Shown here: piece by piece, positions 5,421 through 50,000 of the stretch
Layout of the letters: every line of letters begins with the position of its first letter
Position numbering within the stretch: position 1 is the first letter of the stretch
Source: Alphaproteobacteria bacterium
GTDB taxonomy: Bacteria > Pseudomonadota > Alphaproteobacteria > CAAHEQ01 > UBA3637
Direction of reading: 5' to 3'
Assembly (NCBI GenBank): GCA_045632845.1
Contig: JAZQXL010000012.1
Span: forward strand, 13,816-77,815
DNA: 64,000 bases
Program-made: the position numbers and the translations under genes
Notes under the pieces: model-generated
What the model saw: the letters and a program-made list of their open reading frames with translations, nothing else
Database searches by the model: none
What the model was told of the DNA's origin: nothing

Positions 5421-5424
<4 letters not shown>

Positions 5425-7235
5425 TTTTCAGAATTTCCCATTTCATCAGCAAGTTCTTTAACAACCTTTGAAAGTTTTTCTTTCGTTTCATCTGTTAAAT
5501 CGTTTGTTGAAGCAATACTTTCTAAAATATCTGGATGTTTTGTTTTGATTAATTCTTGTAATTTTGTTTCAAACAAAGAAACTTTATCTAAATCAATTTC
5601 ATCCAAATATCCGTTCACACCTGCAAAAATTGAAATTACCTCTTCAGGCATTGAATAAGGCTGATACTGTTTTTGTTTCATAATTTCAGTTAAACGAGAA
5701 CCACGATTTAATAACGCTTGTGTTGCTGGATCAAGATCTGATGAAAATTGTGAAAAGTTCATCACTTCACGATATTGTGCCAAATCCAACTTTAACGAAC
5801 CTGCAACCTTTTTCATCGCTTTACTTTGAGCAGCAGATCCCACACGACTAACAGATAAACCAACGTTAATAGCAGGTCTAACCCCTTGCAAAAATAAATT
5901 AGATTCTAAGAAAATCTGACCATCTGTAATTGAAATAACGTTTGTTGGAATATAAGCAGACACATCTCCTTCTTGTGTTTCAATAACAGGAAGAGCCGTT
6001 AAAGAACCACCGCCATTTTCTTGACTAAGTTGTGCCGCTCTTTCAAGTAATCTAGAGTGCAAATAAAAAACATCCCCAGGATATGCTTCACGACCTGTTG
6101 GTCGTTTTAACAATAAAGACATTTCACGATAAGCAACGGCATGCTTTGATAAATCATCATAAAAGACAATAGCATTCATCCCATTATCTCTAAAATATTC
6201 TCCAATTGTGCAACCAGCATATGGTGCCAAATATTGCATTGCAGCACTATCGGATGCTGTTGCAGAAACAATCACCGTATAATCCAAAGCGCCTTTTTCT
6301 TCCAATGTGCGCATAATATCTCGAACAGTTGATTGTTTTTGACCAATTGCCACATAAATACAGAATAATTTTTCTTTATCAGGCAAAATAGCATTCTTTT
6401 CTTTTTGACTTAAAATTGTATCTAAGATAATTGCTGTTTTACCAGTTTGTCTATCGCCAATAATCAACTCACGTTGTCCACGCCCAATTGGAACCAATGC
6501 ATCAATTCCCTTAATTCCTGTTTGGATTGGCCTGTTCACAGAACTTCTTGCAATAATCCCAGGAGCTGGTGCCATAACAGGGTGATGAGGCAAATCTTTT
6601 AAAGATGATTTTCCATCAATAGCTTCACCCAATGGATTTAATACTCGACCCAACAACTCCATACCAACAGGAACTGTATTCATTTGTTGAGTTCTTGTTA
6701 CCAATGCACCTTCTTTAATATTTTGGGCATTATCAAAAATAACAATATCTACCACATCAGGATTTAAATTCAAAGCCATCCCATGTTGACCAGATTCAAA
6801 AACAACACGTTCACCAGCAGCAATCGTTTTTAATCCCTCAACTCTTGCAACACCATCAGAAACTGAAAGGACTTTTCCAACTTCTTTAACTTGCGTTTTT
6901 TCTTCAAACGCATCCACAGATTGAGAGAAAATAGATGCGATTTTATTCACGTCAATGGCTTGAGAAACCTTTGTTTCAATCTCTTTTTGAAATACTGCCA
7001 ATTGACCTTTTACCGAAGAATCAATCAAAAGGGAGTCCACATTCAATGTTAAACCACCAAGCAAAGCGGGATTCACTTTAACTTGCAACATAAAGTTGTC
7101 ATCTTTTAAAATATGAGCTAGTTTTTTTCTTAATGTATCCAATTGTTTTTCGGACAAAGAAACAGCAGACTCAACCTCTATATATCTTGTTGTTTCCGTT
7201 GTTTCATTCATTGTTGTTTCTGTCTTTTCAGCCAT
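5421..7235 (-). CDS. atpA: F0F1 ATP synthase alpha subunit with an in-frame N-terminal fusion to the C-terminal domain of the delta (OSCP) subunit
   Basis: Residues ~95-604 are a canonical alpha subunit (P-loop GDRQTGKTA). Residues ~17-90 ([66 protein letters not shown]) match the C-terminal domain of delta/OSCP. No stop codon separates the two parts. The ATG at 7235 has an AAAGGA Shine-Dalgarno 10 nt upstream. Confidence 0.8.
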
Positions 7236-9884: not shown

Positions 9885-12167
9885 ATGTCAAAAAAGATGC
9901 TTATCGATGCAACGCATCTGGAAGAAACCCGCGTTGTTGTATCAGAAAATGGGAGAGTTGAAGAACTAGATGTTGACACCTCAACCAAAAAACAAATTAA
10001 AGGAAATATTTATTTAGCAAAAATCGTTCGCGTTGAACCATCATTGCAAGCTGCTTTTGTTGATTATGGTGGTAATCGACATGGCTTTTTAGCTTTTAGT
10101 GAAATTCATCCTGATTATTATCAAATCCCTGTTGCGGATAGAGAAGCTTTAAAAGCTATGCTCAAAAAAACTGAAGAAGATGATAATGACACACTTTTGG
10201 AAACAGCAGATTCTAAAAGTGATGTTGAGGTTGTTTCAGAAGTTGAATCTGATATTCGCACAAAATTTTGTCCTTCTTTTATCAAGAAATACAAAATTCA
10301 AGAAGTTATTAGACAAGGACAAGTCATGCTTGTTCAAGTTGTCAAGGAAGAACGAGGCAACAAAGGTGCTGCTTTAACAACTTATCTTTCATTAGCTGGT
10401 CGCTTCAGTGTTTTAATGCCAAACAATGGAAAAGGTGGCGGTATTTCACGCAAAATTACAAATGTAAAAGATAGAAAAGCACTCCGCTCCATCATTGACA
10501 AATTCTCCATTCCTGATGGCATGAGCGTCATCATAAGAACTGCTGGTCAAGGCAAAACAAAAACTGAAATCAAACGTGATTACGATTACTTAATTAAAAC
10601 TTGGTTAAAGATCAGAGAAGAAACTCTCGAATCTCTTGCTCCAAAACTTATTCATGAAGAAGGGGACATCGTCAAACGTTCTTTAAGAGATGTGTTTACA
10701 CCTGATATTGAAGAAATCTGGATTGAGGGCGAAAGCGTTTTCAAATCTGCTAAAGAATTTATGAAAATGTTAATGCCAAGTCAGGCAAAAAAAATTAAAC
10801 AATATAAAGGCTCAGAACCTTTATTTGTAACACAACAAATTGAACCTCAATTAGAAAGTATTCACAGCAATATCGTTCAATTAAAATCAGGTGGTTACCT
10901 TGTAATTGATCAAACAGAAGCTTTGGTTGCTGTTGATGTCAACTCTGGTCGTGCAACAAAAGAACACGATATTGAAGAAACCGCATTAAGAACAAATCTT
11001 GAAACATGTGATGAATTGGCTCGTCAACTTCGTTTACGCGATATGGCTGGGCTTATTGTTATTGACTTTATTGATATGGAAGAGGCTAAAAACAATGCCG
11101 CAGTTGAACGAAGATTAAAAGAGGCGCTCAAAAAAGATAGAGCTCGCATTCAAGTTGGCAAAATGTCTGGTTTCGGGTTAGTTGAAATGTCGAGACAACG
11201 CTTGCATTCTAGCTTTTTAGAAAGCAGTTACCATTCATGCATGCACTGTGGTGGAAAAGGGGTTGTAAGATCTGTTGAATCTTGTGCAATGCATGCGTTA
11301 CACGTTTTGGAAGAAGCTGCATACAAAAATGTAAAGAACAAAATTCTCATTTCTTTACCTGTGAATGTGTCAACATATTTATTAAACGTAAAACGTTCTC
11401 ACTTGGTTGCATTAGAAACAAAATATAATGTAAACATTCAAATCATTCCTGATGAAACATTGTTGCGTCCTTCTGATTTCAAACTTGAACGCATTCGTGA
11501 AGATGGTGAACGTCAAAACATCAATTTACATACGCAAAATAAACAAGAGCAAAAAGAAAAGAAAAAACCTGATTTTTCACCTAAAAATCAAGTTGAAAAA
11601 GAACTTAAAAAAGCTGAAAAAATCGTTGCAGTTAAAGAAAAAGAACCTGAAGAAGAACCTGCAACTGAACCGGTTGAAGACAACAATTCTTTTGAAAAGA
11701 AAAATAAGAACAAACGCCGCAACGAATGGCGCAAAAGAAGACGTGAAAAAAGAATGATGGCTCGTTTAAAACGTCAAGCTGAAAAAGAAGAAAATGTTTC
11801 ATCAGCTCCTGTTGAAATGCCATCAGGGGAAGAAAAATTCACCGTTGTTGAACAAAAAGATTTTTCAGAAATCAAAGAAACAGAACAAAAAATTGAAAAA
11901 CTAAAATCAGAGAAAAAGGAAGTAAAAAAACAAACAAATCCTTCCAATTCTTCTGAACAAAATGGTGAAAAAAAGGCTCCACAAAAAAAGAAACCTCAAA
12001 AGAAGTCACGTCCTTCAGCAAAAAAGGAAAAAGAAAATAAACCTACAACTGAAGAAACTCCTGTCAAAAAAAAGGAAGATAAACCTATCTTGGTTGAAAA
12101 AGAAACACAAGATATGCAAGAACCTAGACAGGCAAAAAAGGGTTGGTGGAATAAACTTGTAAACTAA
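9885..12167 (+). CDS. rne: ribonuclease E
   Basis: 760 aa. The N-terminal S1 and RNase E/G catalytic domain carries signature DVNSGR and the zinc link CxxC. The C-terminal half is a long Lys/Glu-rich low-complexity scaffold tail. Confidence 0.9.
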   Translation: MSKKMLIDATHLEETRVVVSENGRVEELDVDTSTKKQIKGNIYLAKIVRVEPSLQAAFVDYGGNRHGFLAFSEIHPDYYQIPVADREALKAMLKKTEEDDNDTLLETADSKSDVEVVSEVESDIRTKFCPSFIKKYKIQEVIRQGQVMLVQVVKEERGNKGAALTTYLSLAGRFSVLMPNNGKGGGISRKITNVKDRKALRSIIDKFSIPDGMSVIIRTAGQGKTKTEIKRDYDYLIKTWLKIREETLESLAPKLIHEEGDIVKRSLRDVFTPDIEEIWIEGESVFKSAKEFMKMLMPSQAKKIKQYKGSEPLFVTQQIEPQLESIHSNIVQLKSGGYLVIDQTEALVAVDVNSGRATKEHDIEETALRTNLETCDELARQLRLRDMAGLIVIDFIDMEEAKNNAAVERRLKEALKKDRARIQVGKMSGFGLVEMSRQRLHSSFLESSYHSCMHCGGKGVVRSVESCAMHALHVLEEAAYKNVKNKILISLPVNVSTYLLNVKRSHLVALETKYNVNIQIIPDETLLRPSDFKLERIREDGERQNINLHTQNKQEQKEKKKPDFSPKNQVEKELKKAEKIVAVKEKEPEEEPATEPVEDNNSFEKKNKNKRRNEWRKRRREKRMMARLKRQAEKEENVSSAPVEMPSGEEKFTVVEQKDFSEIKETEQKIEKLKSEKKEVKKQTNPSNSSEQNGEKKAPQKKKPQKKSRPSAKKEKENKPTTEETPVKKKEDKPILVEKETQDMQEPRQAKKGWWNKLVN

Positions 12168-12260: not shown

Positions 12261-12335
12261 GACCCTATCATCTAGCGGTTAGGATACAACCCTCTCAAGG
12301 TTGGTACACGGGTTCAAATCCCGTTAGGGTCGCCA
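12261..12335 (+). tRNA. tRNA-Glu (anticodon CUC)
   Basis: Hand-folded cloverleaf. Acceptor stem GACCCTA/TAGGGTC, D-arm ATCT/GGAT, anticodon stem CAACC/GGTTG with loop CT-CTC-AA, T-arm ACGGG-TTCAAAT-CCCGT, discriminator G and an encoded CCA. Overall similarity to proteobacterial tRNA-Glu. Confidence 0.8.
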
Positions 12336-12616
12336 AAAACAAAAACGCCAACAGGTGTTTTTTTGTTTTGGGCAATATCGTCAGATATGAACCCTCGGGT
12401 TCGAGCAGTTAGTTGGTGAGAATATGAGCATAATTTTTATGCGATATTCGAACCTTACGATGCGAAAGGGTCCCAATTTAATTGGGAATATCAAATCCCG
12501 TTAGGGTCGCCAAAAACAAAAACGCCAACGGGCGTGTTTTTTGTTTTGGGCAATATCGTCAGATATGAACCCGTCGGGTTCGAGCAGTTAGTTGGTGAGA
12601 ATGAGCATAATTTTTA
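12314..12616 (+). repeat. tandem direct duplication (2 x ~127 bp, period 177 bp), each copy beginning with the last 22 nt of the tRNA-Glu
   Basis: Copy 1 is 12314-12440 and copy 2 is 12491-12616, about 95% identical. Each reads TCAAATCCCGTTAGGGTCGCCA, then an AAAAACAAAAACGCCAAC...GTTTTTTTGTTTTGGGC hairpin, then CAATATCGTCAGATATGAACCC..GGGTTCGAGCAGTTAGTTGGTGAGAAT..GAGCATAATTTTTA. The pattern is like attL/attR. Confidence 0.7.
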
Positions 12617-12681: not shown

Positions 12682-13216
12682 ATGAAAATTTTAATCATAG
12701 GCCCCCTTGGTGCAGGCAAATCATCTCTTGCCCACGCTTTGAATAAAAAATTTAATTTTCCACGATTAAATCTTGATGAAATTTGTAGAAATCCAAAAAA
12801 TGGGGACTATTACTCTCTTGAAAATTCTTTAAAAAAAATTAAACATCTTCATCAAGACTCATAACAATTGGGTCATAGAAGGAAGCCAATCATATTTATA
12901 CAAAAAAACAAGTCCCGACTTGATTATTGACATGCGCATTCTTCGTCTTGTGGCGATAGGCCGTTTTACATATCGATTTTTTAAAGCAAAAAAATTAATA
13001 GGGAAAAACATTGATAAAAATTTACCTGTTCAGGCCTACCATTACAGAAAAATAACATTATCAAAAATTTTAGATTGGGATAGTGCAAACAAGGAAATCA
13101 ATCAGCAAATTACTGATTATTTAAAAAACACCAAAATTCAAGTTCTAACGTGTAAAAATTTTAGAGATTACCAAAAAATTTTTGATTATATTGAGTTTTC
13201 AAAAATAATCTTTTAA
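12682..13216 (+). pseudogene. P-loop nucleoside/nucleotide kinase-like protein (adenylate-kinase/topology-modulation FlaR-like family), disrupted by a frameshift
   Basis: The N-terminal part MKILIIGPLGAGKSSLAHALNKKF... (Walker A) ends at a stop at 12862-12864. The rest of the fold (…NNWVIEGSQSYLYKKTSPDLIIDMRILRLVAIGRFTYRFFKAKK…) continues in the +1 frame to 13216. The family normally spans about 170 aa in one frame. Confidence 0.55.
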
Positions 13217-13255
13217 TATATTTCTTATCTTAAACATACAAAAAAAGAGTTAAAA

Positions 13256-13813
13256 ATGAGAATTGGATTTCAAGGAGATTATCTAAGCAACTCAGAAGAA
13301 GCAAGTCAAAAATTTGCTGAAAAATTAAACTCAACCCATGTTGAATTCGTCCCTCTTATATCCTCTCAAAATGTCGTTTCAGAACTTTTGAACAATCAAA
13401 TTGATTTTGGTGTTATGGCAACTAAAAACATTGTTGCAGGAGAGGTTGTTGAAACCAAAAAAGCTCTCACCCCTGAAATTGAACTTTTTGATACTTTAGA
13501 TTTACCCATACATCATTGTTTGTTTAAAAAATCCCCTCAAAGTAATATTGAATATGTTTCTTCACATATTCAAGCGCTTCAACAAACACAAGAAACAAGA
13601 AAAAAAATATTAAAAAACGTCATTGAAATTGAATGCACAGATACTGCTTTGGCTGCCAAAATGCTTTTTAATGGTGAATATCCAGAAAATTATGCTGTTA
13701 TATGCAGAGAAAATGCTGGCAATTTTTTTAACCTAACCCTGATGGCAAAAAATATTGAAGACAATCCTTTTAACATGACAAGTTTTGGTCTTTTCAAACT
13801 AAAAAACAGTTAA
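13256..13813 (+). CDS. prephenate dehydratase catalytic (PDT) domain protein, lacking the ACT regulatory domain
   Basis: 185 aa. IGFQGDYLSNSEEA... matches the PDT signature (GxxGxxGSFSE-like), and ...DTALAAKML...AVICRENAGNFFNLTLMAKNIEDNPFNMTSF matches the C-terminal part of the PDT domain. No ACT domain follows. Confidence 0.6.
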   Translation: MRIGFQGDYLSNSEEASQKFAEKLNSTHVEFVPLISSQNVVSELLNNQIDFGVMATKNIVAGEVVETKKALTPEIELFDTLDLPIHHCLFKKSPQSNIEYVSSHIQALQQTQETRKKILKNVIEIECTDTALAAKMLFNGEYPENYAVICRENAGNFFNLTLMAKNIEDNPFNMTSFGLFKLKNS

Positions 13814-13872
13814 AATTTTCAACCCTTTTCTTTTTATTGAAATAACGCCATATTTGTGATATATTTGAGAAA

Positions 13873-14859
13873 TTGTTCAACAAAAAAAGAAAGAGAATTA
13901 AAATGCAAATTGTTAATACGCATACTGGAAAAATTTATGTAAATCCTGAACGCCGTCTCGAATTTTTAACTGTTGGTGATTATGGAAAAGAAAACAACAT
14001 TAAAGCTGACTTTATGGGACTTCATAAAGAAATTAATGGCGTCCAACACAAGCCTGTCGATTTAACAAAAAAATGGGTTGCCACCATCAGTACACAAAAA
14101 GGCTGCCCAATGAAATGTCAATTTTGTGATTGTCCTAAATATGGTTTTTATGGCAATGCTTCACTTGAAGATTTAAGTTATGAAATTGAAACTATTCTTC
14201 AAAATGAAACCATTAAATATACTGATAGATTTAACGTTCACTTTGCTCGTATGGGCGAACCAACATTCAACCAAAATGTTTTAACATTTGCAAAAGATTA
14301 TTTAAGAGAATTAACAAATAAGTACATTCAAGCAAAAACCATTCATCCAGTTGTTTCAACAATGTTACCTAACAACAACAAAAATTTAAAACAATTTATT
14401 TTGGATTGGTGCAACATTAAAAACATTGATTACAATGGAGAAGCTGGTCTTCAATTTTCAATCAACTCAACAGATAATGAACAAAGAAATCAACAATTCA
14501 ATTCAAAAAGCTTGTCTTTAGAAGAAATATCAGAACTAGCAAAAGAATTACCTACTCCTGTTGGAAGAAAATATACTCTAAACTTTGCCGTTACAAAAGA
14601 TACAATTTTAGATGCTGACAGATTATCCCAATTGTTTGATAAGGATATGTTCATTGTCAAAATAACACCTATTCACGAAACAAATGCAGCAGTTCAAAAT
14701 GGTTTTGACGTCACAACAAGTTATGATGATTATGACGTTTATCGTCAATTTGAACAACCACTTGTTAAAGCTGGGTGGGATGTTATTGTTTTTGTCCCAA
14801 GTCATGAAGAAGACAGCGATAGAATCACATGTGGTAACGCATTAATTGCATCCGCATAA
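13873..14859 (+). CDS. radical SAM enzyme, divergent RlmN/Cfr-like (probable true start at the Met at 13903)
   Basis: CxxxCxxC cluster motif inside TQKGCPMKCQFC (compare RlmN SSQVGCALECKFC). ARMGEP resembles RlmN GMGEP. The C-terminal DRITCGNAL resembles RlmN D.DAACGQL, the methyl-carrier cysteine. The protein is shorter than RlmN (~320 vs ~380 aa) and lacks RlmN's N-terminal domain. Confidence 0.6.
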   Translation: MFNKKRKRIKMQIVNTHTGKIYVNPERRLEFLTVGDYGKENNIKADFMGLHKEINGVQHKPVDLTKKWVATISTQKGCPMKCQFCDCPKYGFYGNASLEDLSYEIETILQNETIKYTDRFNVHFARMGEPTFNQNVLTFAKDYLRELTNKYIQAKTIHPVVSTMLPNNNKNLKQFILDWCNIKNIDYNGEAGLQFSINSTDNEQRNQQFNSKSLSLEEISELAKELPTPVGRKYTLNFAVTKDTILDADRLSQLFDKDMFIVKITPIHETNAAVQNGFDVTTSYDDYDVYRQFEQPLVKAGWDVIVFVPSHEEDSDRITCGNALIASA

Positions 14860-14931
14860 CATTTTATTTATAATAACAATCTATATGCTCTAAGAAATTT
14901 CTTAGAGCATTTTTTTATGGAGATAAATCTG

Positions 14932-16002
14932 TTATGGTTCATTTATATGCAACGCCACACGTCCAGATTTTAAAATACCATTTAATATTTCATACCCAAT
15001 TGTACCTGCATCTTGCCCCATATCATCAGCTGTATATTGTGGCCCCAATACATCAACAAAATCCCCCTCTTCAAGACACTTAACATCCGTTACATCACAC
15101 ATAATATTATCCATTGACAATCTGCCAACCATTCTGATTTCTTGATCCTCAAAAAAGACTCGTCCACGTCCCGCTAATGCTCTTGGCAAACCATCTGCAT
15201 ATCCAATAGATACAATGGCTACTTTCATATTTTTTGCCACTTTATAAGTGGCACCATATCCAATATATTCTCCAGGAAAAACATCTTCAATTTGCAAAAC
15301 AGGTGCTTTTAAATAAACAACATTTTTCATCCGATTTTGACGATCTGGAGCTGTATTCAATCCATACATTGCAGCACCTAAGCGCACCATATCCTTTTGA
15401 AACTTTTCCCCCAAAAACAATCCATCTGAGGCTGAAAGTGTAAGTGGCGTGTTCGAAAAATATTTTGAAATTTCATCAAAAGCTTCTATTTGATGCCAAT
15501 TCATAAAATGATATGGCTCATCCGCACAAGAAAGATGGGATAAAATATATGAAAATTCTTTTTTATCTTCCTCACTTAAATTTTGAATCTCTTTTAATCT
15601 AAAACCTAACCGATTTAAACCAGTTTCAACATTTAAAACAGGACGAATTCCTTCAACTTTATTTTGTTTCCAAAACTCCCACATTTTAGGTGTTGCAATA
15701 ACAGGTGTTAATCTTTCTTTTTTAACAAGATCAATCGAATCTTGTCCAACGCCTTGTAAAACAAAAATATCTGCTGTTGGAGCAAATTTTCTAACCTTTT
15801 CACCCTCATTTGCCAAAGCTACAAAAAAATGATTACACCCTTCTTTTACAAGGGATGGAACAACATTTTCAATTCCAAGTCCATAGGCATTATTTTTAAC
15901 AACTGCAGCAGGTATCGCTTGAGGCGCTTGATTTTTTAAAAAATTATAATTTTCAACCAATGCTTTCAAATCTACTGTTAATTTTGCTTGTGTAAAAATC
16001 AT
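14932..16002 (-). CDS. alr: alanine racemase
   Basis: 356 aa with the PLP-lysine motif AVVKNNAYGLG near the N-terminus and a typical TIM-barrel plus beta-domain layout. Confidence 0.85.
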   Translation of the reverse strand: MIFTQAKLTVDLKALVENYNFLKNQAPQAIPAAVVKNNAYGLGIENVVPSLVKEGCNHFFVALANEGEKVRKFAPTADIFVLQGVGQDSIDLVKKERLTPVIATPKMWEFWKQNKVEGIRPVLNVETGLNRLGFRLKEIQNLSEEDKKEFSYILSHLSCADEPYHFMNWHQIEAFDEISKYFSNTPLTLSASDGLFLGEKFQKDMVRLGAAMYGLNTAPDRQNRMKNVVYLKAPVLQIEDVFPGEYIGYGATYKVAKNMKVAIVSIGYADGLPRALAGRGRVFFEDQEIRMVGRLSMDNIMCDVTDVKCLEEGDFVDVLGPQYTADDMGQDAGTIGYEILNGILKSGRVALHINEP

Positions 16003-16842: not shown

Positions 16843-17046
16843 TTATGCTGCTTTTACTTCACAATCACAACTTGCTTTTTCTTCTGTAAACCACATTCTT
16901 TCTTCAAATTCAGACTTTTTACCTTTGTTAAAGTGGCTGTATGGACGAAAATAACCCATAACACGTGTCCAACATTCAACTGATTGTCTTTCATTTTCAC
17001 AGGATTTCAAGATTTCTGCATCTGTCATTTTATCTGTTCCTTTCAA
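16843..17046 (-). CDS. orphan NrdD-like C-terminal zinc-ribbon/glycyl-radical domain protein (67 aa)
   Basis: ...CENERQSVECWTRVMGYFRPYSHFNKGKKSEFEERMWF... aligns with the extreme C-terminus of class III RNR NrdD (TRRVCGYLGSPDARPFNAGKQEEVKRRV), including the RVxGY glycyl-radical motif. No NrdD catalytic body is encoded nearby. The ORF has its own terminator. Confidence 0.5.
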   Translation of the reverse strand: MKGTDKMTDAEILKSCENERQSVECWTRVMGYFRPYSHFNKGKKSEFEERMWFTEEKASCDCEVKAA

Positions 17047-41051: not shown

Positions 41052-44000
41052 TTAGAAGTTTTGTTTTAACTTCATCATACCACCATGTTCTTGATAGGAT
41101 TTTCTAAATGATCCCAAGTATTCAACAGAAAGGGTAGTAAGATCTCCAAGTTCTGCATCAATACCCAAATTGACATTTGTGCTAAATCTATCAAGTGCAT
41201 TTCCTTCTGCGGTATACACAGCACCATTAGAAAGTGTATTAATTGAACCCGTATCATCTGAAATAATATCATATCCAAACATTACACCTGCTGTTGGTCT
41301 GATATAAAGCCCGTGAACTGTTTTGTACGGAGCACGAATATCAATTCCTGCCATTGCAGTCATATAGCGATAAGTGTTGTTATCAATATGTGTATCTAAT
41401 GAATCAACATATGCTTCTTGGTTGATATCCATATATTTCAAACCAAGCTTTGGTGTGATAATTAAGTCACGGCAGCTAAAGTCATATCCTGCCATTGCTT
41501 GAACAGCAAAAGTATCCACATTATACATCCCATCAGATGCTGTTGAAAGAATGTTTTTTGACTCCTCATATTGTGAACGAGAATAACTGACAACACCTTC
41601 GACAAACCATTTGTTTGGTTGATATCTTGCAAAAGCAAAACCTGTGTTTGTTTGTGCTGTTGTATCACGACCAGATTGAGCAATATCTGCATACCCATAT
41701 GCATAACCAACACCCACAGTTAATGTATCTGTAATTTGTTTTTGAATACCAGCCACAAAACCTGTTTCGTTTGCTTTGAAATCACCTTTGTCATCATATT
41801 TTGCATGCCCATAAAGTGCTTTTACCCAAACTTGTGCATTTTGTGTTTCATCACCACCTGAGGTACCTTCAACTTTTGAAGATAATTTAACTTGGTCACT
41901 CACCGCATCTGTGATACCTTTAAAGTGTGATGAGGCAATTGATTGAACAACTGGAGAAACATTTCCACCTAAATTGTCAAGAGCTTTTACAGCCTTTTTA
42001 ATTAATGCTGCATTTCCAGATTGCAAATGTTCAATCAACTCTGTTTGAGCTTTGTTGAACAATTCATTTGTTCCACGCCCTTCATGCAATGCGATAATGG
42101 CAGCTGTTTGATTTTTATCAGAACCATATTGATTTGAAATTTTAGAACTATCTTTTGAAATGAATGAATATCTACCATCTTCTAAATCTAAGAAATTGAA
42201 ACCTTCATCATTATGTACTGCTGTTGGCAATGATGAAATGGCATCCATTTTAAGAACATTGTATAATCCCATTTCAAAATTTTCACCTAGGTCAAAATCA
42301 ATTTTAGAATCTTCTTCAGAAATTAAATTTGTACCTATCAATGAACCATAATCAGAACGATCATTCAACTGAACATTTAATGTTGAACCATTTTCTAATG
42401 TAATTTCTTGTGCGGTTACATCAATATTTCTGATATCAAGATTTGTATCATTTTGAACAGTTAAATTTGCAACTTCAATTGTTTTGATATCTTCACCAAA
42501 CTGCATATTATTGCTGACAAGATTATTAGATGTTGCAAAACCGTCTTTTACGTTCAATGTAGCACCATTCATGGTCAATGTACCATTACCTGTTAATGCA
42601 TTTGTAATTGAAAGATTACCTGTTGCAATCATTTGGTTGTTATTTTCAACAGAAGCAAATGTTGAATTATCAACATTTATTGTTCCTAAGTTTGAAGCAT
42701 TTTCAATCACAGAATTACCTTGAACGGTTAAAGTTCCCGTTCCTTTATTTTCAACAGTTGTAACCATTGAACCTGTTAACGTAGCATTACCAGTATTATC
42801 AAGAGAGGTGATTGTATCTTCTGTTGATGTTAAACTGTTGTTGTTTGTAACAGTACCCAACTTGGAGTTACTTGATGTTAACTTACCATCATTTGTGATT
42901 GTATCAACATTTGTAACACCTGATAATGTTGTGTTGCCATCTTGAGCATTATTAAGCGTTTTAATTGTACCACCTGTTGCTGTGAGTGTTCCGTTATTAA
43001 CAGTTAATAAACCAACTGTTGTATTAGTTAACCCTGTTGTTCCATCTTGGTTTGTCAACGTTGTGATAGAACCACCTTCTACCGTTAACGTACCACTGTT
43101 TGTAAGTGTTGCAACAGTTGTATCTGTTAACGTAGCACCACCAGTATTATCAAGTGACGTGATTGTATCTTCTGTTGATGTTAAACTGTTGTTATTTGTA
43201 ACAGTACCCAACTTAGATTTACCTGATGTTAATACACCATCATTTGTGATTGTATCAACATTTGTAACACCTGATAATTTTGTGTTACCATCTTGAGCAT
43301 TATTAAGTGTTTTGATTGTACCACCTGTTGCTGTGAGTGTTCCTTTATTAACAGTTAATGAACCAACTGTTGTATTGGTTAACCCTGTTGTTCCATCTTG
43401 GTTTGTCAACGTTGTGATAGAACCACCTTCTACCGTTAACGTACCACTGTTTGTAAGTGTTGCAACAGTTGTATTAGTTAACCCAGCACTACCAGTATTA
43501 TCAAGTGAAGTGATTGTATCTTCTGTTGATGTTAAACTGTTGTTGTTTGTAACAGTACCCAACTTAGATTTACCTGATGTTAATACACCATCATTTGTGA
43601 TTGTATCAACATTTGTAACACCTGATAATTTTGTGTTACCATCTTGAGCGTTATTAAGTGTTTCAATTGATCCACCTGTTGCTGTAACTGTTCCTTTATT
43701 CACTGTTAATGTACCAACAGTTGTATCAGTTAACCCTGCTGTTCCATCTTGGTTTGTTAAAGTTGTGATAGATCCACCCTCGGCAACAAATGTTCCTTCG
43801 TTTGTAACACCTTGCAAATTGCTGTTAGAAGATTTCATCGTTCCACTATTTGCAAGTAAAGCATTCGCATCATTGATTTGAACATTGTTTAATACCAAAC
43901 CATACTCACCACTTGTGGATAAATTATCAATAACAACTGTTGGTGCTGTGTTTGCTAAAGTGTCAATAATAACATTATCAAGAATAGCATTGCCATTTGT

Positions 44001-47000
44001 CATTGTTAAAATAGATATTGCATTTTTAATTGTTAAATCTTGAACAGTTAATTTTGTACTTGCATCTGAGACTTCAAACATACTGTGATTATTTGCATCA
44101 ATAATACTTGCACTGGCATCTCCTGCAACAGCACCAAGGATTAATTTTTCACCAATCCCTGTTGCACCCAAATCTGAAGTCATTTGATATGTTGAACCTG
44201 TTTCTCCATCAACAGACATATAGAAATTACTATTCCCTGCATATTGGTTAATATGGGTTAAAGAATTACCATCTGTCGTTTTGAATGCTTTTAATTCAAC
44301 AGTTTGCAAATCATCTGAGATAATTGCATTATATGTATAAGCATTTGTCACAGCATTAAATGATGTTGAACCTTTTAATGCATCTGCAAATGTAGCATTA
44401 CCTTGCAAAACTTGAACGGTGTAACTTGTTGATGTGCCATCATCTTTGTTTGCATCTTGATTATTAACCCCTGTTGGCACAACTTTGAAATTTGCATTTG
44501 CAACAACAAAAGCATTGTCACCAGTTACATTCAACACATCTGATTTTGCAATCACACCATTAAATCCACCATCAATAGCATTTGAAACAAGACCAATATC
44601 AACCGCTAATGTTGTATTGCTTCCTGCAACATTTTGCATATTCACAACTGAATAAATATCATCTTGCATATTGATGGTTGAATTATCAAATTGATATGTT
44701 TCACCAGCATATTCGTTTGCTGTCAACTGAACAGTTGCATTGTCAAATTTAATCAAATCTTCTACTGTTCCAGAACCCATGTCAGTCAATGTATATGTCC
44801 CATTTTTGAATGAAATCGTTGAAGTTCCAACTTCCCCATCTGACAAAACAATTTTGTTTGCATTGTGGACAACTGTTTCATCTGATGTGGTTGATTCAAA
44901 TGAAATTATACCATTTCCTGTTGCTGTTGCAGTGTATCCAATTGTATCGCCTTTTGTTTCAAGTATACCACCTGAAATTGTGTTTACTCCTTGGAAGAAG
45001 TTTTCACTATCTGCAATTGTTTTTCCACCTGTTTGATTAAATTCACCTGTGAATGTTTTTACATTTTCACTTCCAAAAGTTAAATTGCCTGAATTGTTAA
45101 TAGTGCCGGCACCCTCAATTGTTCCAGCAAAGTGAACTGCCCCAGATAAATTCATTTCACCTTGATGAGAGATATTAGAAAAAGACGTATTGTTTGCATT
45201 TAATGTTGCACCAGACAAAACATTTGTATCTCCAGTAACTGAAAGTGTATTAGCAACACCATTTAAAGAAACGCTCCCTCCATTTACATTCAAGTTTGTA
45301 AGAGCTGTATTGGTTAATTTAGCTGTTCCATCTTGGTTTGTCAATGTTGTGATAGATCCACCGTTAGCTGTTAATGCACCACTGTTTGTAAGTGTTGCAA
45401 CAGTTGTATCTGTTAACTCAGCACCACCAGTATTATCAAGTGACGTGATTGTATCTTCTGTTGATGTTAAACTGTTGTTATTTGTAACAGTGCCCAACTT
45501 AGATTTACCTGATGTTAATACACCATCATTTGTGATTGTATCAACATTTGTAACATCTGATAATTTTGTGTTACCATCTTGAGCATTATTAAGTGTTTTA
45601 ATTGTACCACCTGTTGCTGTAACTGTTCCTTTATTAACAGTTAATGAACCAACTGTTGTATCAGTTAACCCTGTTGTTCCATCTTGGTTTGTTAAAGTTG
45701 TGATAGATCCACCGTTAGCTGTTAATGCACCACTGTTTGTAAGTGTTGTAACAGTTGTATTAGTTAACTCAGCACCACCAGTATTATCAAGTGAAATAAT
45801 TGTATCTTCTGTTGATGTTAACACGCCTTTATTTGTTACAACACCAAGTGTTGAGCTATTGCTTGCTAAAGAACCACTATTTTCGACATCTTTAAATGAA
45901 ACATTGGTTGCGTTTAATTTGCCATCTGTTGCAATGGTTGTTTTTCCACCAACTGTTAAAGGGGTTGTTGTACCAATCAAACCAACTACCCCACCTGTTA
46001 CATCTAATACTCCAGATATAGTTGTATCTATTAAGGTTGTACTCCCTGCAGTGTTCAACAAAGAAGAAATTGATCCACCATTTGTTGTGAAAGACCCACT
46101 GTTTTCAACAGATGTTAATGTAGAATTTACACCATTAAATCTGCCTGAGTTTATCAAGTCTTTTAATGTGCTATTTTGAACATTCATAGCCCCTGAGTTT
46201 TCAATCAAATCTTCAGCATCTTGAATGTGAACATTTTTTAAAACAAGCCCATAAGTTGTATCATCCCCTGCAGCGTTTGACATAATTGGATTTGCAACTA
46301 AATTGCCATTCTCAAGCCCAACATTTGTTGTGTTATGAATCCAGACATTTTCAAAAGTTGTTGTACCTGCACCTTGCGCTGTTGTTAAAACAGAACTTGT
46401 ATCTGTGATTGCAACATCTTTTACCGTTAAATTTGTATCGGCATTTGATACATCAAACATCGAATAGCCATTAGCATCAATGGTACTTTTGATAATGTTC
46501 GATCCATCTGTATAACCTTGAACAAGCTTGTTTCCTGTGCCTGTTGTACCCAAAGATGAATTCATTTCATATCTTGAATCAAGATTTGTCATATAAAAAG
46601 CACTATCCCCTGTATACTGATTAACAGCTCTTAATGAATCGCCATTTGCAGCTTGAATTGCCGTTAACTCAATTGTTTGAGAATCTTTTAATCCCACATT
46701 ATATTGATAGACATCTGTTGAAACAAGAGCACTGTTTATTGGAGTGTTAAATGTGACACCTTCCAAAACCTTTTTAGAAATGCTTGTTGTTAAACCGCTA
46801 TCTAACTGAACATTGTTAATAATCTGAACTTTTGTTAAATCCAAATCAAAAGAAGATGTATTACTTGGATTTAAAACTGTGATTGTATCTGAACCCAAAG
46901 CTAATGTGCCATCTGTATTTTTTGAAAGTTTAACGTCAAATGCTAAATCTGTGTTAGAAAGGAAAAGATTATCTCCTGTAAATTGAATATTGCTTAACCC

Positions 47001-50000
47001 ATTTCCTCTCAAATCAACTGTTGTATCATTAAAACTGTATGTTTCACCAGCATATTCGTTTGCTGTCAATTGAACTGTTGCATTGTCAAACTTGATTAAA
47101 TCTTCTGCTGTTCCAGAACCCATATCAGCCAATGTATATGTCCCATTTTTGAATGAAATCGTTGAAGTTCCATTTTGCACATTTGATAAGACAATTTTGT
47201 TTGCATCGTGGACAACAGATGTATCTGAAGAAGTTGATTCAAATGAAATTGCACCACGCCCTGTAGCTGTTGCAGTATATCCAATTGTATCGCCTTTTGT
47301 TTCAAGTATACCACCTGAAATTATGTTTGATTTTTGGAAGAAGTTGTTGCTATCTGCAATTGTTTTACCATCTGTTTGGCTAAATGTACCAACATATTTT
47401 GTATTATCCGCAGCACCTAAAATCAAATTGCCAGAATTTGTGATACTTCCAGTACCAGAGACACCTCCTGTCAACTGAATATCTCCAGACAAATTTGTTT
47501 TCCCTTGTCCTGAAAGCAAACCAGTCACAATGGAATCCGTTAATGTAACTGAGCCCAGATCATTTGTTAACCCTGCTATTGAACTATCAGTTGCGGTAAA
47601 ATTCCCTGCAACAATAACATCAGAAAAAGCTGTCCTGTCAGCTGTTAAATCTGTGCCAGTTGCGACGGTTGTTTTCCCAGAAACAACTGTATCCTCTAAA
47701 GCAACATCACCCCCCGTGATTCCCAATGCTCCAGTGATTTGAGTAGAGGTCAAATCAGCTTTACCACCTGTGTTTGCTAAACTTGCAAGAGAACCACCAA
47801 GAATGGTCAAATCACCGCTGTTTGTAAGACCTTGCATTGTAGCATTTACTGCATTTAATGTACCAGCATTTTCAACGGCTGAAAGGCTTGCATTGTTTGT
47901 TGCTAAAAGTGTACCATTAGCGCCAACAGTTGTTTTACCATTGATGATGGAACCATTTAAATCAACATCGCCACCTGTAATAGCAAGAGAACCATTGACA
48001 CCAGCAGACATTAAAGTTGCTGTTCCATTCGTATTGCTCAAACTTTCTAATGTACTATCTGTTGCTGTAAAAGTTCCTGCATTTTCAACACCAGCTAAAC
48101 TTGTACCATTCGTTGCTGAAAGTTTTGCAGCTGCTCCAACAATTGTTTTGCTGATAACAACAGTATCATCCAAATTAACTGTTCCGCCTGTGGCTGTAAT
48201 TGTGTTATCAACATGTGCAGAACTTAAAGTTGCTGTTCCATTCGTATTGCTCAAACTTTCTAATGTACTATCTGTAACTGTAAAAGTTCCTGCATTTTCA
48301 ACTGTTGCAAATCTTGTGTTGTTTGTTGCCAAAAGAGTACCATCAGCTCCAACAGTCGTTTTGTCAGCAACAGTTACACCATCTAAATCAACTGTTCCAG
48401 CTGTTGCATTTAAAGTTCCATTAACTTTAGTCGATGTTAAAGCAGCTGTTCCACCACTGTTTGTTAAACTTGCAAGTGAACCCCCATTGGCTGTGAAAAT
48501 TCCTGCATTTTCAACAGCTGCAAATGTTGTATTGTTTATTGCTGAAAGGGAACCATCAGCTCCAACTGTTGTTTTTCCACCAACAGTTGCTCCGTCTAAA
48601 TCAACCGTTCCGCCTATTACATCTAAAGTACCAGTAATTGCAGCATCTGTTAAAGCAGCTGTTCCACCAGTATTTATTAAACTTGCAAGTGAACCACCAT
48701 TGACTGTAAAATCTCCTTCATTTTCAACATTTTCAAACGTTGTATTGTTTGTTGCCAAAAGAGTACCATCAGCTCCAACAGTCGTTTTGTCAGCAACAGT
48801 TACACCATCTAAATCAACCGTTCCGCCTGTTGCATTTAAAGTTCCATTAACTTTAGTCGATGTTAAATCAGCTGTTCCACCTGTATTTGTTAAATCTGTA
48901 AGTGAACCACCATTGGCTGTAAAAGTTCCCGCATTTTCAACATCTGCAAATGTTGTATTGTTTATTGCTGAAAGGGAACCATCAGCTCCAACTGTTGTTT
49001 TGTCAGCAACAGTTGCACCATCTAAATCAACCGTTCCGCCTGTTGTATTCAAAGCACCAGTAATTGCAGTATCTGTTAAAGTCCCTGTTCCACTAGTATT
49101 TGTTAAATCTGCAAGTGAACCCCCATTGGCTGTGAAAGTTCCTGCATTTTCAACACCTGCTAAACTTGTACCATTCGTTGATAAGAGTGTACCATCAGCT
49201 CCAACTGTTGTTTTTCCACCAACAGTTGTTCCGTCTAAATTAACTGTTCCAGCTGTTGCATCTAAAGGTCCATTAATTTGAGTCGATGTTAAAGTTGCTG
49301 TTCCACCACTGTTTGTTAAATCTGTAAGTAACCCCCCATTGGCTGTGAAAGTTCCTGCATTTTCAACGTCTGAAAGACTTGTGTTGCCTGTTGCTGAAAC
49401 TTTACCATTGGCACCAACAGTTGTTTTTCCATCAACAGTTGTACCATGTAAACTAACAGCTCCGCCTGTTACATCTAAAGCACCAGTAATTGTAGCATCT
49501 GTTAAACTTGCTGTTCCACCTATATTTGTTAAATCTGTAAGTGAACCACCAGTAACACCAAGCCCCCCCCATTCATTTAAAACATGTTGCATTACAGTAT
49601 TTGTTGCCGTTAAGTTTCCACTATACGATAAATTCGTATCTCCAGAAATTTCAACATCAGTCAAATTTGTAAGACCCAAACCTTGAACGTTTAAAGCACC
49701 AAGAGTCCCTCCTTGAATGGTTAAAGAACCACCATTTATAACATTTTGCATTGCAACATCAACTGCATTTAATGCTGCGCCAAAACCAACTGTTGTTTTA
49801 TCAGCAACAGTTGCACCATCTAAACTAACAGTTCCCCCTGTTACATCTAAAGCACCAGTAATTGTAGCCTCTGTTAAAGTCCCTGTTCCACTAGTGTTTG
49901 TTAAATCTGTAAGTGAACCACCATTGGCTGTGAAAGTTCCTGCATTTTCAACATCTGCAAATGTTGTATTGTTTGTTGCTGAAAGGGAACCTGATGTTCC

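Follow-up and report, generated by a model that had tools for sequence, protein, structure and literature searches.

A kinase pseudogene, a stand-alone prephenate dehydratase domain and an RlmN/Cfr-related radical SAM protein at a variable tRNA-Glu site: a probably composite locus with a candidate small-molecule enzyme

Do three co-oriented genes beside a tRNA form a functional module, or do they stand together by local coincidence? The question is raised by a 2.2-kb stretch between the tRNA-Glu gene and alr in 64 kb of alphaproteobacterial DNA (the window, meaning the whole stretch analysed). All on the forward strand, it holds a frameshifted P-loop NTPase/kinase gene (12682–13216), a gene for a stand-alone prephenate dehydratase (PDT)-domain protein (13256–13813) and a gene for a radical S-adenosylmethionine (SAM) protein related to RlmN and Cfr (13903–14859), hereafter rSAM. 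Their shared orientation and position, given in a preliminary description of the sequence, are borne out, with gaps of 39 nt between kinase and PDT and of 59 nt (TTG start of rSAM) or 89 nt (ATG start) between PDT and rSAM; these are not chance open reading frames (ORFs), because all three genes have real homologues. The stretch is probably a composite in which the trio is a local coincidence and rSAM a small-molecule enzyme, a judgement that covers both parts together; the small-molecule role by itself, read from sequence, is one we favour with slightly less confidence.

Mapping reference proteins by tblastn onto 45 related loci (L001–L044 and the window) separates the three genes. The window's lineage shares the synteny RNase E ... 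alr–transglutaminase–NrdD-like, within which the tRNA-Glu–alr space is a variable spot. The window has kinase(frameshifted)–PDT–rSAM; L014 has kinase–PDT–resolvase and no rSAM; L015/16 have GNAT–DUF7424–DUF7424–PDT–rSAM; L020–23 have a lipoprotein and/or an AI-2E permease, then PDT–rSAM–resolvase; and L041 has rSAM–resolvase–alr on a contig that ends within the rSAM gene, with the PDT position out of view. PDT is present in every relative whose position is visible, and rSAM in all but one (L014). The kinase is limited to two of the 45 loci, the window and L014. A small serine recombinase (Pfam Resolvase and HTH_7) lies between rSAM (or PDT) and alr in most relatives (L014 7740–8330; L020 9085–9693; also L021–23 and L041) and may explain gain and loss of rSAM at the site; it is missing from L015/16 and from the window, in which no recombinase was found. 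Outside the window's lineage, PDT and rSAM co-occur in none of the loci mapped. This comparison does not support the three-gene islet of the preliminary description: of the 8 related loci with PDT and/or rSAM at the site, 7 have no kinase, and at other sites rSAM occurs by itself or with partners of quite another kind.

The kinase gene is also broken, as had been noted. Three-frame translation shows an ORF that opens at 12682 (MKILIIGPLGAGKS) and stops at 12864, with reading resumed in the +1 frame to 13216; by tblastn, an intact 177-aa orthologue in L014 (L014:6429–6962) matches both frames, with 77% identity in the N-terminal piece and 86–88% in the C-terminal piece. The switch falls at a run of eight A residues (A8, 12831–12838), where either a one-base slip inactivated the gene or the run was mis-sequenced. 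Like members of the FlaR ('DNA topology modulation') family, the kinase matches NCBIfam PRK07261 over its full length, as it does Pfam AAA_33, and the intact L014 orthologue has the Walker A motif GPLGAGKS; unlike them, that orthologue scores 41.5 bits against a cutoff of 224 bits (aligned positions 1–167 of 171), and the window copy is frameshifted. A full-length alignment at so low a score marks it as a remote adenylate-kinase-like P-loop protein. Its dN/dS against L014 is 0.20–0.27 and therefore indicates selection until recently, the frameshift being either young or a homopolymer sequencing error.

A possible origin of the kinase is written in the adjacent tRNA. The 3′ end of tRNA-Glu (anticodon CUC; 12261–12335, forward strand; ARAGORN, and 61.6 bits with Rfam tRNA) is duplicated in att-like direct repeats on the same strand (repeat search, several families): copy 1 at 12314–12439 comprises the tRNA 3′ end, its terminator hairpin and downstream sequence, and copy 2 at 12491–12616 is a displaced duplicate of the tRNA 3′ end. 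The period is about 177–179 nt, and the 22-mer core is seen twice against zero expected by chance. These repeats and the convergent alr (14932–16002) do flank the genes as described earlier, but the repeats enclose only about 155 nt, with kinase, PDT and rSAM all outside, and no third copy of the att core brackets the three genes at up to 3 mismatches. PDT and rSAM, conserved in the lineage and outside the repeats, are not recent cargo between att sites. The duplication is confined to the window and L014, the two genomes with the kinase, and is absent from L015/16 and L020–23; it looks like the scar of a lost integrated element. In L014 it lies at about 6107–6290 and likewise brackets almost nothing. 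Against L014, dS is 0.45–0.53 for the kinase, compared with 0.90 for flanking alr and 1.28 for PDT. This lower divergence, together with the confinement of the kinase to the tRNA-duplicated genomes, suggests that a tRNA-targeted element, now reduced to the att scar, brought the kinase in or exchanged it.

The PDT gene, by contrast with the kinase, is conserved in the lineage and under purifying selection; its dN/dS of 0.10–0.13 therefore indicates a functional protein. The 185-aa product matches Pfam PF00800 with 114.9 bits against a gathering cutoff of 25.2 (E = 4.7e-33; profile positions 1–177 of 181), and the sequence ends after this domain. Pfam finds no ACT domain, in line with the preliminary description, and the protein therefore cannot be regulated by phenylalanine through one. 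With PheA it shares the full-length PDT domain, the Thr and Phe of the TRF motif and the SH-QAL and DTA-AA motifs. It differs in the missing ACT domain, a replaced TRF Arg, a PIHHC motif of its own, a position outside any aromatic amino-acid operon, and scores below the cutoffs of the PheA equivalogs PRK11898 (85.3 against 219) and PRK11899 (68.2 against 359); the equivalog match stops at profile position 183 of 284, leaving the ACT region uncovered. The TRF motif is important in PDTs. In the window it reads N-M-T-S-F in place of the canonical N-x-T-R-F, and in an alignment of 17 members Thr and Phe are invariant while none has kept the Arg, which gives way to S, T, E, L or Y; the same alignment shows PIHHC to be particular to the stand-alone family, of which we found 65 homologues of 182–190 aa in metagenome bins of Firmicutes and of gut Alphaproteobacteria. 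Other stand-alone enzymes have the PDT fold, and one of them, the prephenate decarboxylase BacA, offers a comparison. The related Rs-D84 genomes are reported to have no complete amino-acid pathways (PMC12306168), and the missing Arg together with the presence of the protein in such organisms makes a minor puzzle.

Could PDT and rSAM nevertheless form a two-gene operon, in which the PDT-like protein makes or binds a chorismate- or prephenate-derived intermediate for rSAM? The two genes stay adjacent and co-oriented in the window, L015/16 and L020–23 even though PDT has diverged to 55–60% identity, and a scan found no terminator-like hairpin between the kinase, PDT and rSAM ORFs. The loss of the TRF Arg and the PIHHC motif hint at a non-canonical PDT substrate, and the founding members of the PDT and isochorismatase families (the latter a partner of rSAM elsewhere, see below) act on chorismate-derived cyclohexadienes. 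The pairing is nonetheless limited to one lineage, in which the alr–transglutaminase–NrdD-like synteny is equally conserved and the order may simply be inherited; L014 retains PDT without rSAM; and all other rSAM loci lack PDT, as all other PDT loci lack rSAM. The spacer also holds a promoter-like site (TTGAAA, 17 nt, TG-TATATT; 13837–13865, forward strand), which has 10 of 12 consensus matches and an extended −10 element but is a consensus match only, in a region without an excess of such sites over shuffled sequence. We regard a working operon as doubtful, and PDT–rSAM as an inherited order with or without functional meaning. In Firmicutes the genes beside stand-alone PDTs are unrelated ones, and a radical SAM protein near one other stand-alone PDT (L047) proved to be an unrelated SPASM-type protein.

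What, then, is rSAM? Homologues place its start at ATG 13903 (318 aa), and the alternative TTG at 13873 finds no support among them. Its sequence matches the HMM of PHROG 24834 with E = 3.8e-105 (residues 6–316 on profile positions 9–323 of 336). It carries the motifs GCPMKCQFC, ARMGEP and, near the C terminus, TCGN. Across 36 family sequences the cluster cysteines (C68-x3-C72-x2-C75) and R116-M-G-E-P120 are invariant or nearly so, and C310-G311, which aligns with AACGQL of RlmN and Cfr and places C310 at the position of RlmN C355, is kept in at least 90% of members. A profile of these 36 members, run with hmmsearch against PDB sequences, finds 6fz6 (a Sphaerobacter structure titled "probable RlmN"; 8.3e-19), Cfr (5.3e-18) and RlmN (1.5e-17). 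The alignments begin at RlmN residue 90 (106 in the full-length tagged chain) and Cfr residue 67; those with RlmN and Cfr reach the C-terminal AACGQL, whereas that with 6fz6 ends before it. The AlphaFold (AF2) model (pLDDT 93.3) finds the same three as its best Foldseek matches, at TM scores of 0.52–0.67 (RlmN, E = 3.9e-10 and TM 0.62; 6fz6, TM 0.67), with 13–16% identity in the structural alignments with RlmN.

Kinship is not identity, however. Ahead of the cluster motif the model has only about 60 residues, mostly β-strand, and neither the profile alignment nor the predicted structure contains an N-terminal HhH2-like RNA-binding domain. The position of the RlmN resolving cysteine C118, seven residues before the first cluster Cys, is T61 in rSAM, and none of the 36 members has Cys there (T, I, V, A or N instead); PDB titles of C118A RlmN cross-linked to tRNA show the mechanistic weight of that residue. 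An extra cysteine, C77 (FCDC), is found in the close and sister groups and is absent from a distant clade. The NCBIfam models for RlmN score 28.6 bits against a cutoff of 290 (TIGR00048) and 16.7 against 633 (PRK11194), over residues 66–157 only, and those for Cfr 22.6 against 530 (NF000424) and 20.2 against 550 (TIGR04432). An orthodox RlmN or Cfr is ruled out by cutoffs missed at least 10-fold, and the "rlmN" labels that some pipelines, JGI's among them, give to the family are wrong. With RlmN, rSAM has in common the core homology, CxxxCxxC in an S-x-Q-x-G-C context, MGEP and a C-terminal CG(Q/N), but its genomic contexts are metabolic or phage rather than housekeeping. With Cfr it shares the superfamily, mobility and a spread across phyla, but it has no second Cys, and its saturated synonymous sites (below) leave no room for a recent resistance-gene sweep. 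Judged from these alignments, rSAM is an RlmN/Cfr-lineage core that has kept the methyl-carrier Cys and lost the RNA-binding domain and the resolving Cys, and a self-sufficient member of an uncharacterized family. The earlier characterization of an RlmN-like protein, with its C-terminal catalytic Cys and without the N-terminal domain and resolving Cys, is upheld, and we concur with it in leaving the function open. The literature searched contains no description of the family, which is known as PHROG 24834 or "radical SAM protein".

The same comparison bears on whether the locus could serve in anti-phage defence as a viperin-plus-kinase module, an analogy drawn in the preliminary description. 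A P-loop kinase and a radical SAM protein are indeed encoded at a short distance from each other, and a tRNA with att-like repeats is nearby. No protein passes a PADLOC model, however; the fold match to viperin (6b4c) is weak and, like that to QueL (below), at the background level of radical SAM folds, at E = 4.1e-3 and TM 0.39 against 4e-10 for RlmN, in keeping with the earlier view of rSAM as RlmN-like rather than viperin-like; the kinase is frameshifted and rare among the related loci; and rSAM is itself carried by phages. We consider a defence role extremely improbable.

The conservation of rSAM sets it apart from its surroundings. More than 7000 homologues were found, the best 120 at 77–95% identity, and clustering at 50% collapses nearly all of them, leaving 699 representatives. 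Close copies (74–88% identity) come from metagenome bins of Alphaproteobacteria (Candidatus Enterousia among them), of Bacilli and Muribaculaceae, and of Christensenellaceae, Eubacteriales and Tenericutes, and overall the copies are 74–95% identical across phyla. Between them dS runs from 1.3 to infinity, dN/dS is 0.04–0.1, and GC3 (0.13–0.44) follows the host. Saturated dS and host-tracking GC3 rule out a recent horizontal sweep as the source of the high identity, which, given the low dN/dS, is therefore the product of long and very strong purifying selection. In the window's lineage no other gene of the region is as conserved as rSAM, which has 89% identity compared with 74% for alr and 80% for RNase E. 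The family is noteworthy in having thousands of members that remain about 80% identical across phyla and phages despite saturated synonymous sites; the locus itself is ordinary, a variable tRNA-side spot in a core chromosome, and the interest lies in rSAM, to which the kinase and PDT add little.

Phages carry the family too. Bacteroides phage Versailles has a member at 52% identity, 12 other deposited phage genomes have more distant ones, and further members lie in 29 IMG/VR contigs and one Lachnospiraceae prophage; no conserved partner gene of rSAM was found in phages. A 49%-identical member also occurs on contigs of about 636 kb (L159–L161) with many hypothetical genes, split type II topoisomerase genes and a ParB-HNH gene, which are probably megaphage genomes.

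Four sets of gene contexts outside the window bear on the function. First, in at least nine Enterousia-type genomes, rSAM lies within an operon for salvage of nicotinamide adenine dinucleotide (NAD), pncB–isochorismatase(pncA-like)–rSAM–nadE–DUF5662–nrtR, with gaps of 5–11 nt (L004, L012, L025–L029, L037 and L040; for example, L004 3880–9001). Enterousia genomes are reported to be smaller than 1 Mb and to have no complete amino-acid, nucleotide or lipid biosynthesis (PMC12306168), and two of the operon records are metagenome-assembled genomes (MAGs) from that study. The family is kept in genomes of less than 1 Mb, where the operon around it is probably what these organisms depend on for their NAD. 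The DUF5662 protein of the operon has an HD-like motif, LTHDLSKF.

Second, sister proteins with 40–44% identity, which have the FCDCP motif and the N-terminal insertion of rSAM, are fused to a membrane S-component of energy-coupling factor (ECF) type, two of which pass the Pfam QueT cutoff (37–40 against 33.7 bits). At the C terminus they are fused to a bona fide 5′-methylthioadenosine/S-adenosylhomocysteine (MTA/SAH) nucleosidase (MtnN; 228 bits against a cutoff of 169). Such a nucleosidase clears SAH and 5′-deoxyadenosine, the by-products of radical SAM methylases. This fusion is the sole indirect support for class A (RlmN/Cfr-type) chemistry, in which two SAM are used, a methyl-Cys is formed, and SAH and 5′-deoxyadenosine are released. 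All three parts are found in one 814-aa protein of a Bacilli MAG (P0197, L158 6001–8445), with an ECF S-component-like domain, rSAM and MTA/SAH nucleosidase; no riboswitch was found upstream of it.

Third, in a distant environmental clade (about 30% identity), a thioredoxin reductase (TrxR)-like flavoprotein is encoded immediately upstream of rSAM in 49 of the 60 loci that have an upstream gene, mostly with a 4-nt overlap. CxxC is absent from 44 of 50 of these flavoproteins, which are therefore more likely to be electron donors than disulfide reductases, and in 22 loci an isochorismatase-family hydrolase precedes the flavoprotein. Fusions of rSAM with isochorismatase and of Pyr_redox_2 with rSAM also exist. 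The cassette of isochorismatase-family hydrolase, CxxC-less TrxR-like flavoprotein and rSAM recurs, often translationally coupled, in L078–L157 (for example, L103 and L089) and appears to be an undescribed three-enzyme system; literature on isochorismatase with thioredoxin reductase, and on NrtR or nicotinamidase with radical SAM, gave no account of the rSAM family. Fourth, in four Bacilli/Tenericutes-type bins (L030, L031, L038 and L042), rSAM is followed by the same 158-aa GNAT acetyltransferase, at 81–97% identity. The GNAT genes of L038 and L042 are seemingly frameshifted, their tblastn matches being split across frames.

Transporter, amidohydrolase, reductase and by-product scavenger are partners that bear the signature of small-molecule metabolism and not of RNA modification, and our best guess for rSAM is a radical SAM enzyme that acts on a small molecule and is probably a methylase.

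One specific small-molecule role would be that of a non-orthologous replacement for the queuine lyase QueL, converting salvaged queuine to preQ1. The sister fusions couple a radical SAM protein with an ECF S-component that reaches the QueT cutoff and with a nucleosidase, resembling the salvage logic of queK–qrtT–queL (PMC11477304); streptococci pose the unsolved question of a missing QueL analogue (PMC12632869); and tgt, recognized by eye from its motif, lies within 3 kb of rSAM at one distant locus. QueL belongs to another radical SAM family, however: its structure (6p78, about 230 aa as opposed to 318) ranks 18th in Foldseek, with E = 4.6e-3 and TM 0.40, and gives no profile hit at E ≤ 0.01. 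The fused nucleosidase is a true MtnN, a scavenger of SAM by-products and not a queuosine hydrolase, no preQ1 riboswitch precedes any copy examined, and the best-conserved context is NAD salvage. The comparison of fold and sequence, the MtnN assignment and the lack of preQ1 riboswitches rule out the identity with QueL that the fusions had prompted, and a functional replacement is quite improbable.

From the homology, motif pattern, conservation and gene contexts set out above, we infer the following chemistry and class of substrate for a small-molecule rSAM. The cluster held by C68, C72 and C75 would cleave SAM reductively, and C310 could serve as methyl carrier, as in RlmN, or as a hydrogen-atom relay. 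With no equivalent of C118, C77 is a candidate for a role in product release. The enzyme would act not on 23S rRNA but on a small N-heteroaromatic compound taken up by the cell, a precursor of a vitamin or cofactor whose most plausible link is with pyridine-nucleotide salvage.

The strongest competitor to a small-molecule substrate is a nucleic acid: rSAM might be a C-methyltransferase that modifies tRNA or rRNA like RlmN, confers resistance like Cfr, or protects phage DNA or tRNA against host nucleases. Several observations that favour it also weigh against our reading of rSAM. The homology to RlmN and Cfr covers the whole core, including the methyl-carrier Cys; JGI pipelines label members rlmN; and the closest characterized relatives all act on RNA. 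Many phage and prophage copies lie in replication, recombination or DNA-methylase regions (beside DNA methylases, a SNF2 helicase, RecT with an exonuclease, or a topoisomerase) without metabolic partners. One prophage (L001) has an RNA ligase and a KTI12/AAA_33 kinase two genes from rSAM, and in P0233 an AAA_33–Metallophos protein is joined to the rSAM C terminus. A universal macromolecular substrate would likewise fit conservation this extreme. The isochorismatase of the NAD operon is not closely related to those of the distant clade, and the two associations may be independent. Without a resolving Cys, RlmN chemistry is not transferable unchanged. As for the composite nature of the locus, at least five further species-level genomes share the PDT–rSAM adjacency of the window (six if L041 is counted, where the PDT position is out of view), and it could be functional. 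On the other side, a nucleic-acid target sits poorly with the missing N-terminal domain, with the lack of a Cys at the C118 position throughout the family, with RlmN and Cfr scores of 28.6 of 290 and 20–23 of 530–550, with fusions to a membrane transporter component in the sister group and to an amidohydrolase in the distant one, and with a place inside a NAD salvage operon. We give a nucleic-acid target a low probability. The Cfr-type resistance suggested in the preliminary description is unlikely, the N-terminal domain and resolving Cys being missing and the sister proteins fused to a transporter component.

A small-molecule rSAM could be given a still more definite role, which we put forward tentatively: a branch of class A that has shifted from RNA to a small molecule and supplies a missing step of NAD-precursor salvage in anaerobic gut microbes. 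If this were true, a modified pyridine from diet or host would, for example, be made usable by the Preiss–Handler enzymes, or a pyridine or adenine nucleotide would be C-methylated; phages would carry rSAM to sustain NAD-dependent replication; and work without a resolving cysteine would imply a new mode of product release. Identification of the substrate would extend class A radical SAM chemistry and could close a gap in how gut anaerobes and their phages salvage vitamins or cofactors.

The setting of the locus is that of a core chromosome. The window has a GC content of about 34% and encodes ATP synthase subunits, AmiC, RNase E, alr, gyrB–recF–dnaN, dnaK/J, recN and ligA. These genes were assigned from their translated ORFs, and Pfam confirmed RNase E and its neighbours in relatives. 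The host, a gut alphaproteobacterium of low GC content, is a relative of the reduced-genome Rs-D84/Enterousia group. The RNase E gene (9885–12167) forms the upstream boundary of the stretch. At the other end, a hairpin terminator (14885–14910, forward strand; terminator scan, an 11-bp stem followed by a T run) separates the convergent rSAM and alr genes. An Rfam search of the window found no riboswitch or other RNA element beyond the tRNA.

Three other ORFs of the window, all on the reverse strand, are unusual. A single ORF of 3302 aa at 41052–50960, with a signal-like N terminus, stands out in a seemingly small genome and is probably a giant surface or adhesin protein. The ATP synthase alpha ORF (5421–7235) has 604 aa, about 100 aa above the usual length, and may be fused to the delta subunit, judging from ORF length and position only. 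Beyond alr, an ORF of 61–67 aa at 16843–17046 corresponds to the C-terminal glycyl-radical region of NrdD alone (Pfam NRDD, E = 1.8e-9; RVMGYFRP), with no NrdD-sized ORF in the adjacent upstream segment 17047–17430. It is present in all syntenic relatives at 79–98% identity with dN/dS of 0.02–0.11 and may be a stand-alone 'spare-part' glycyl-radical peptide.

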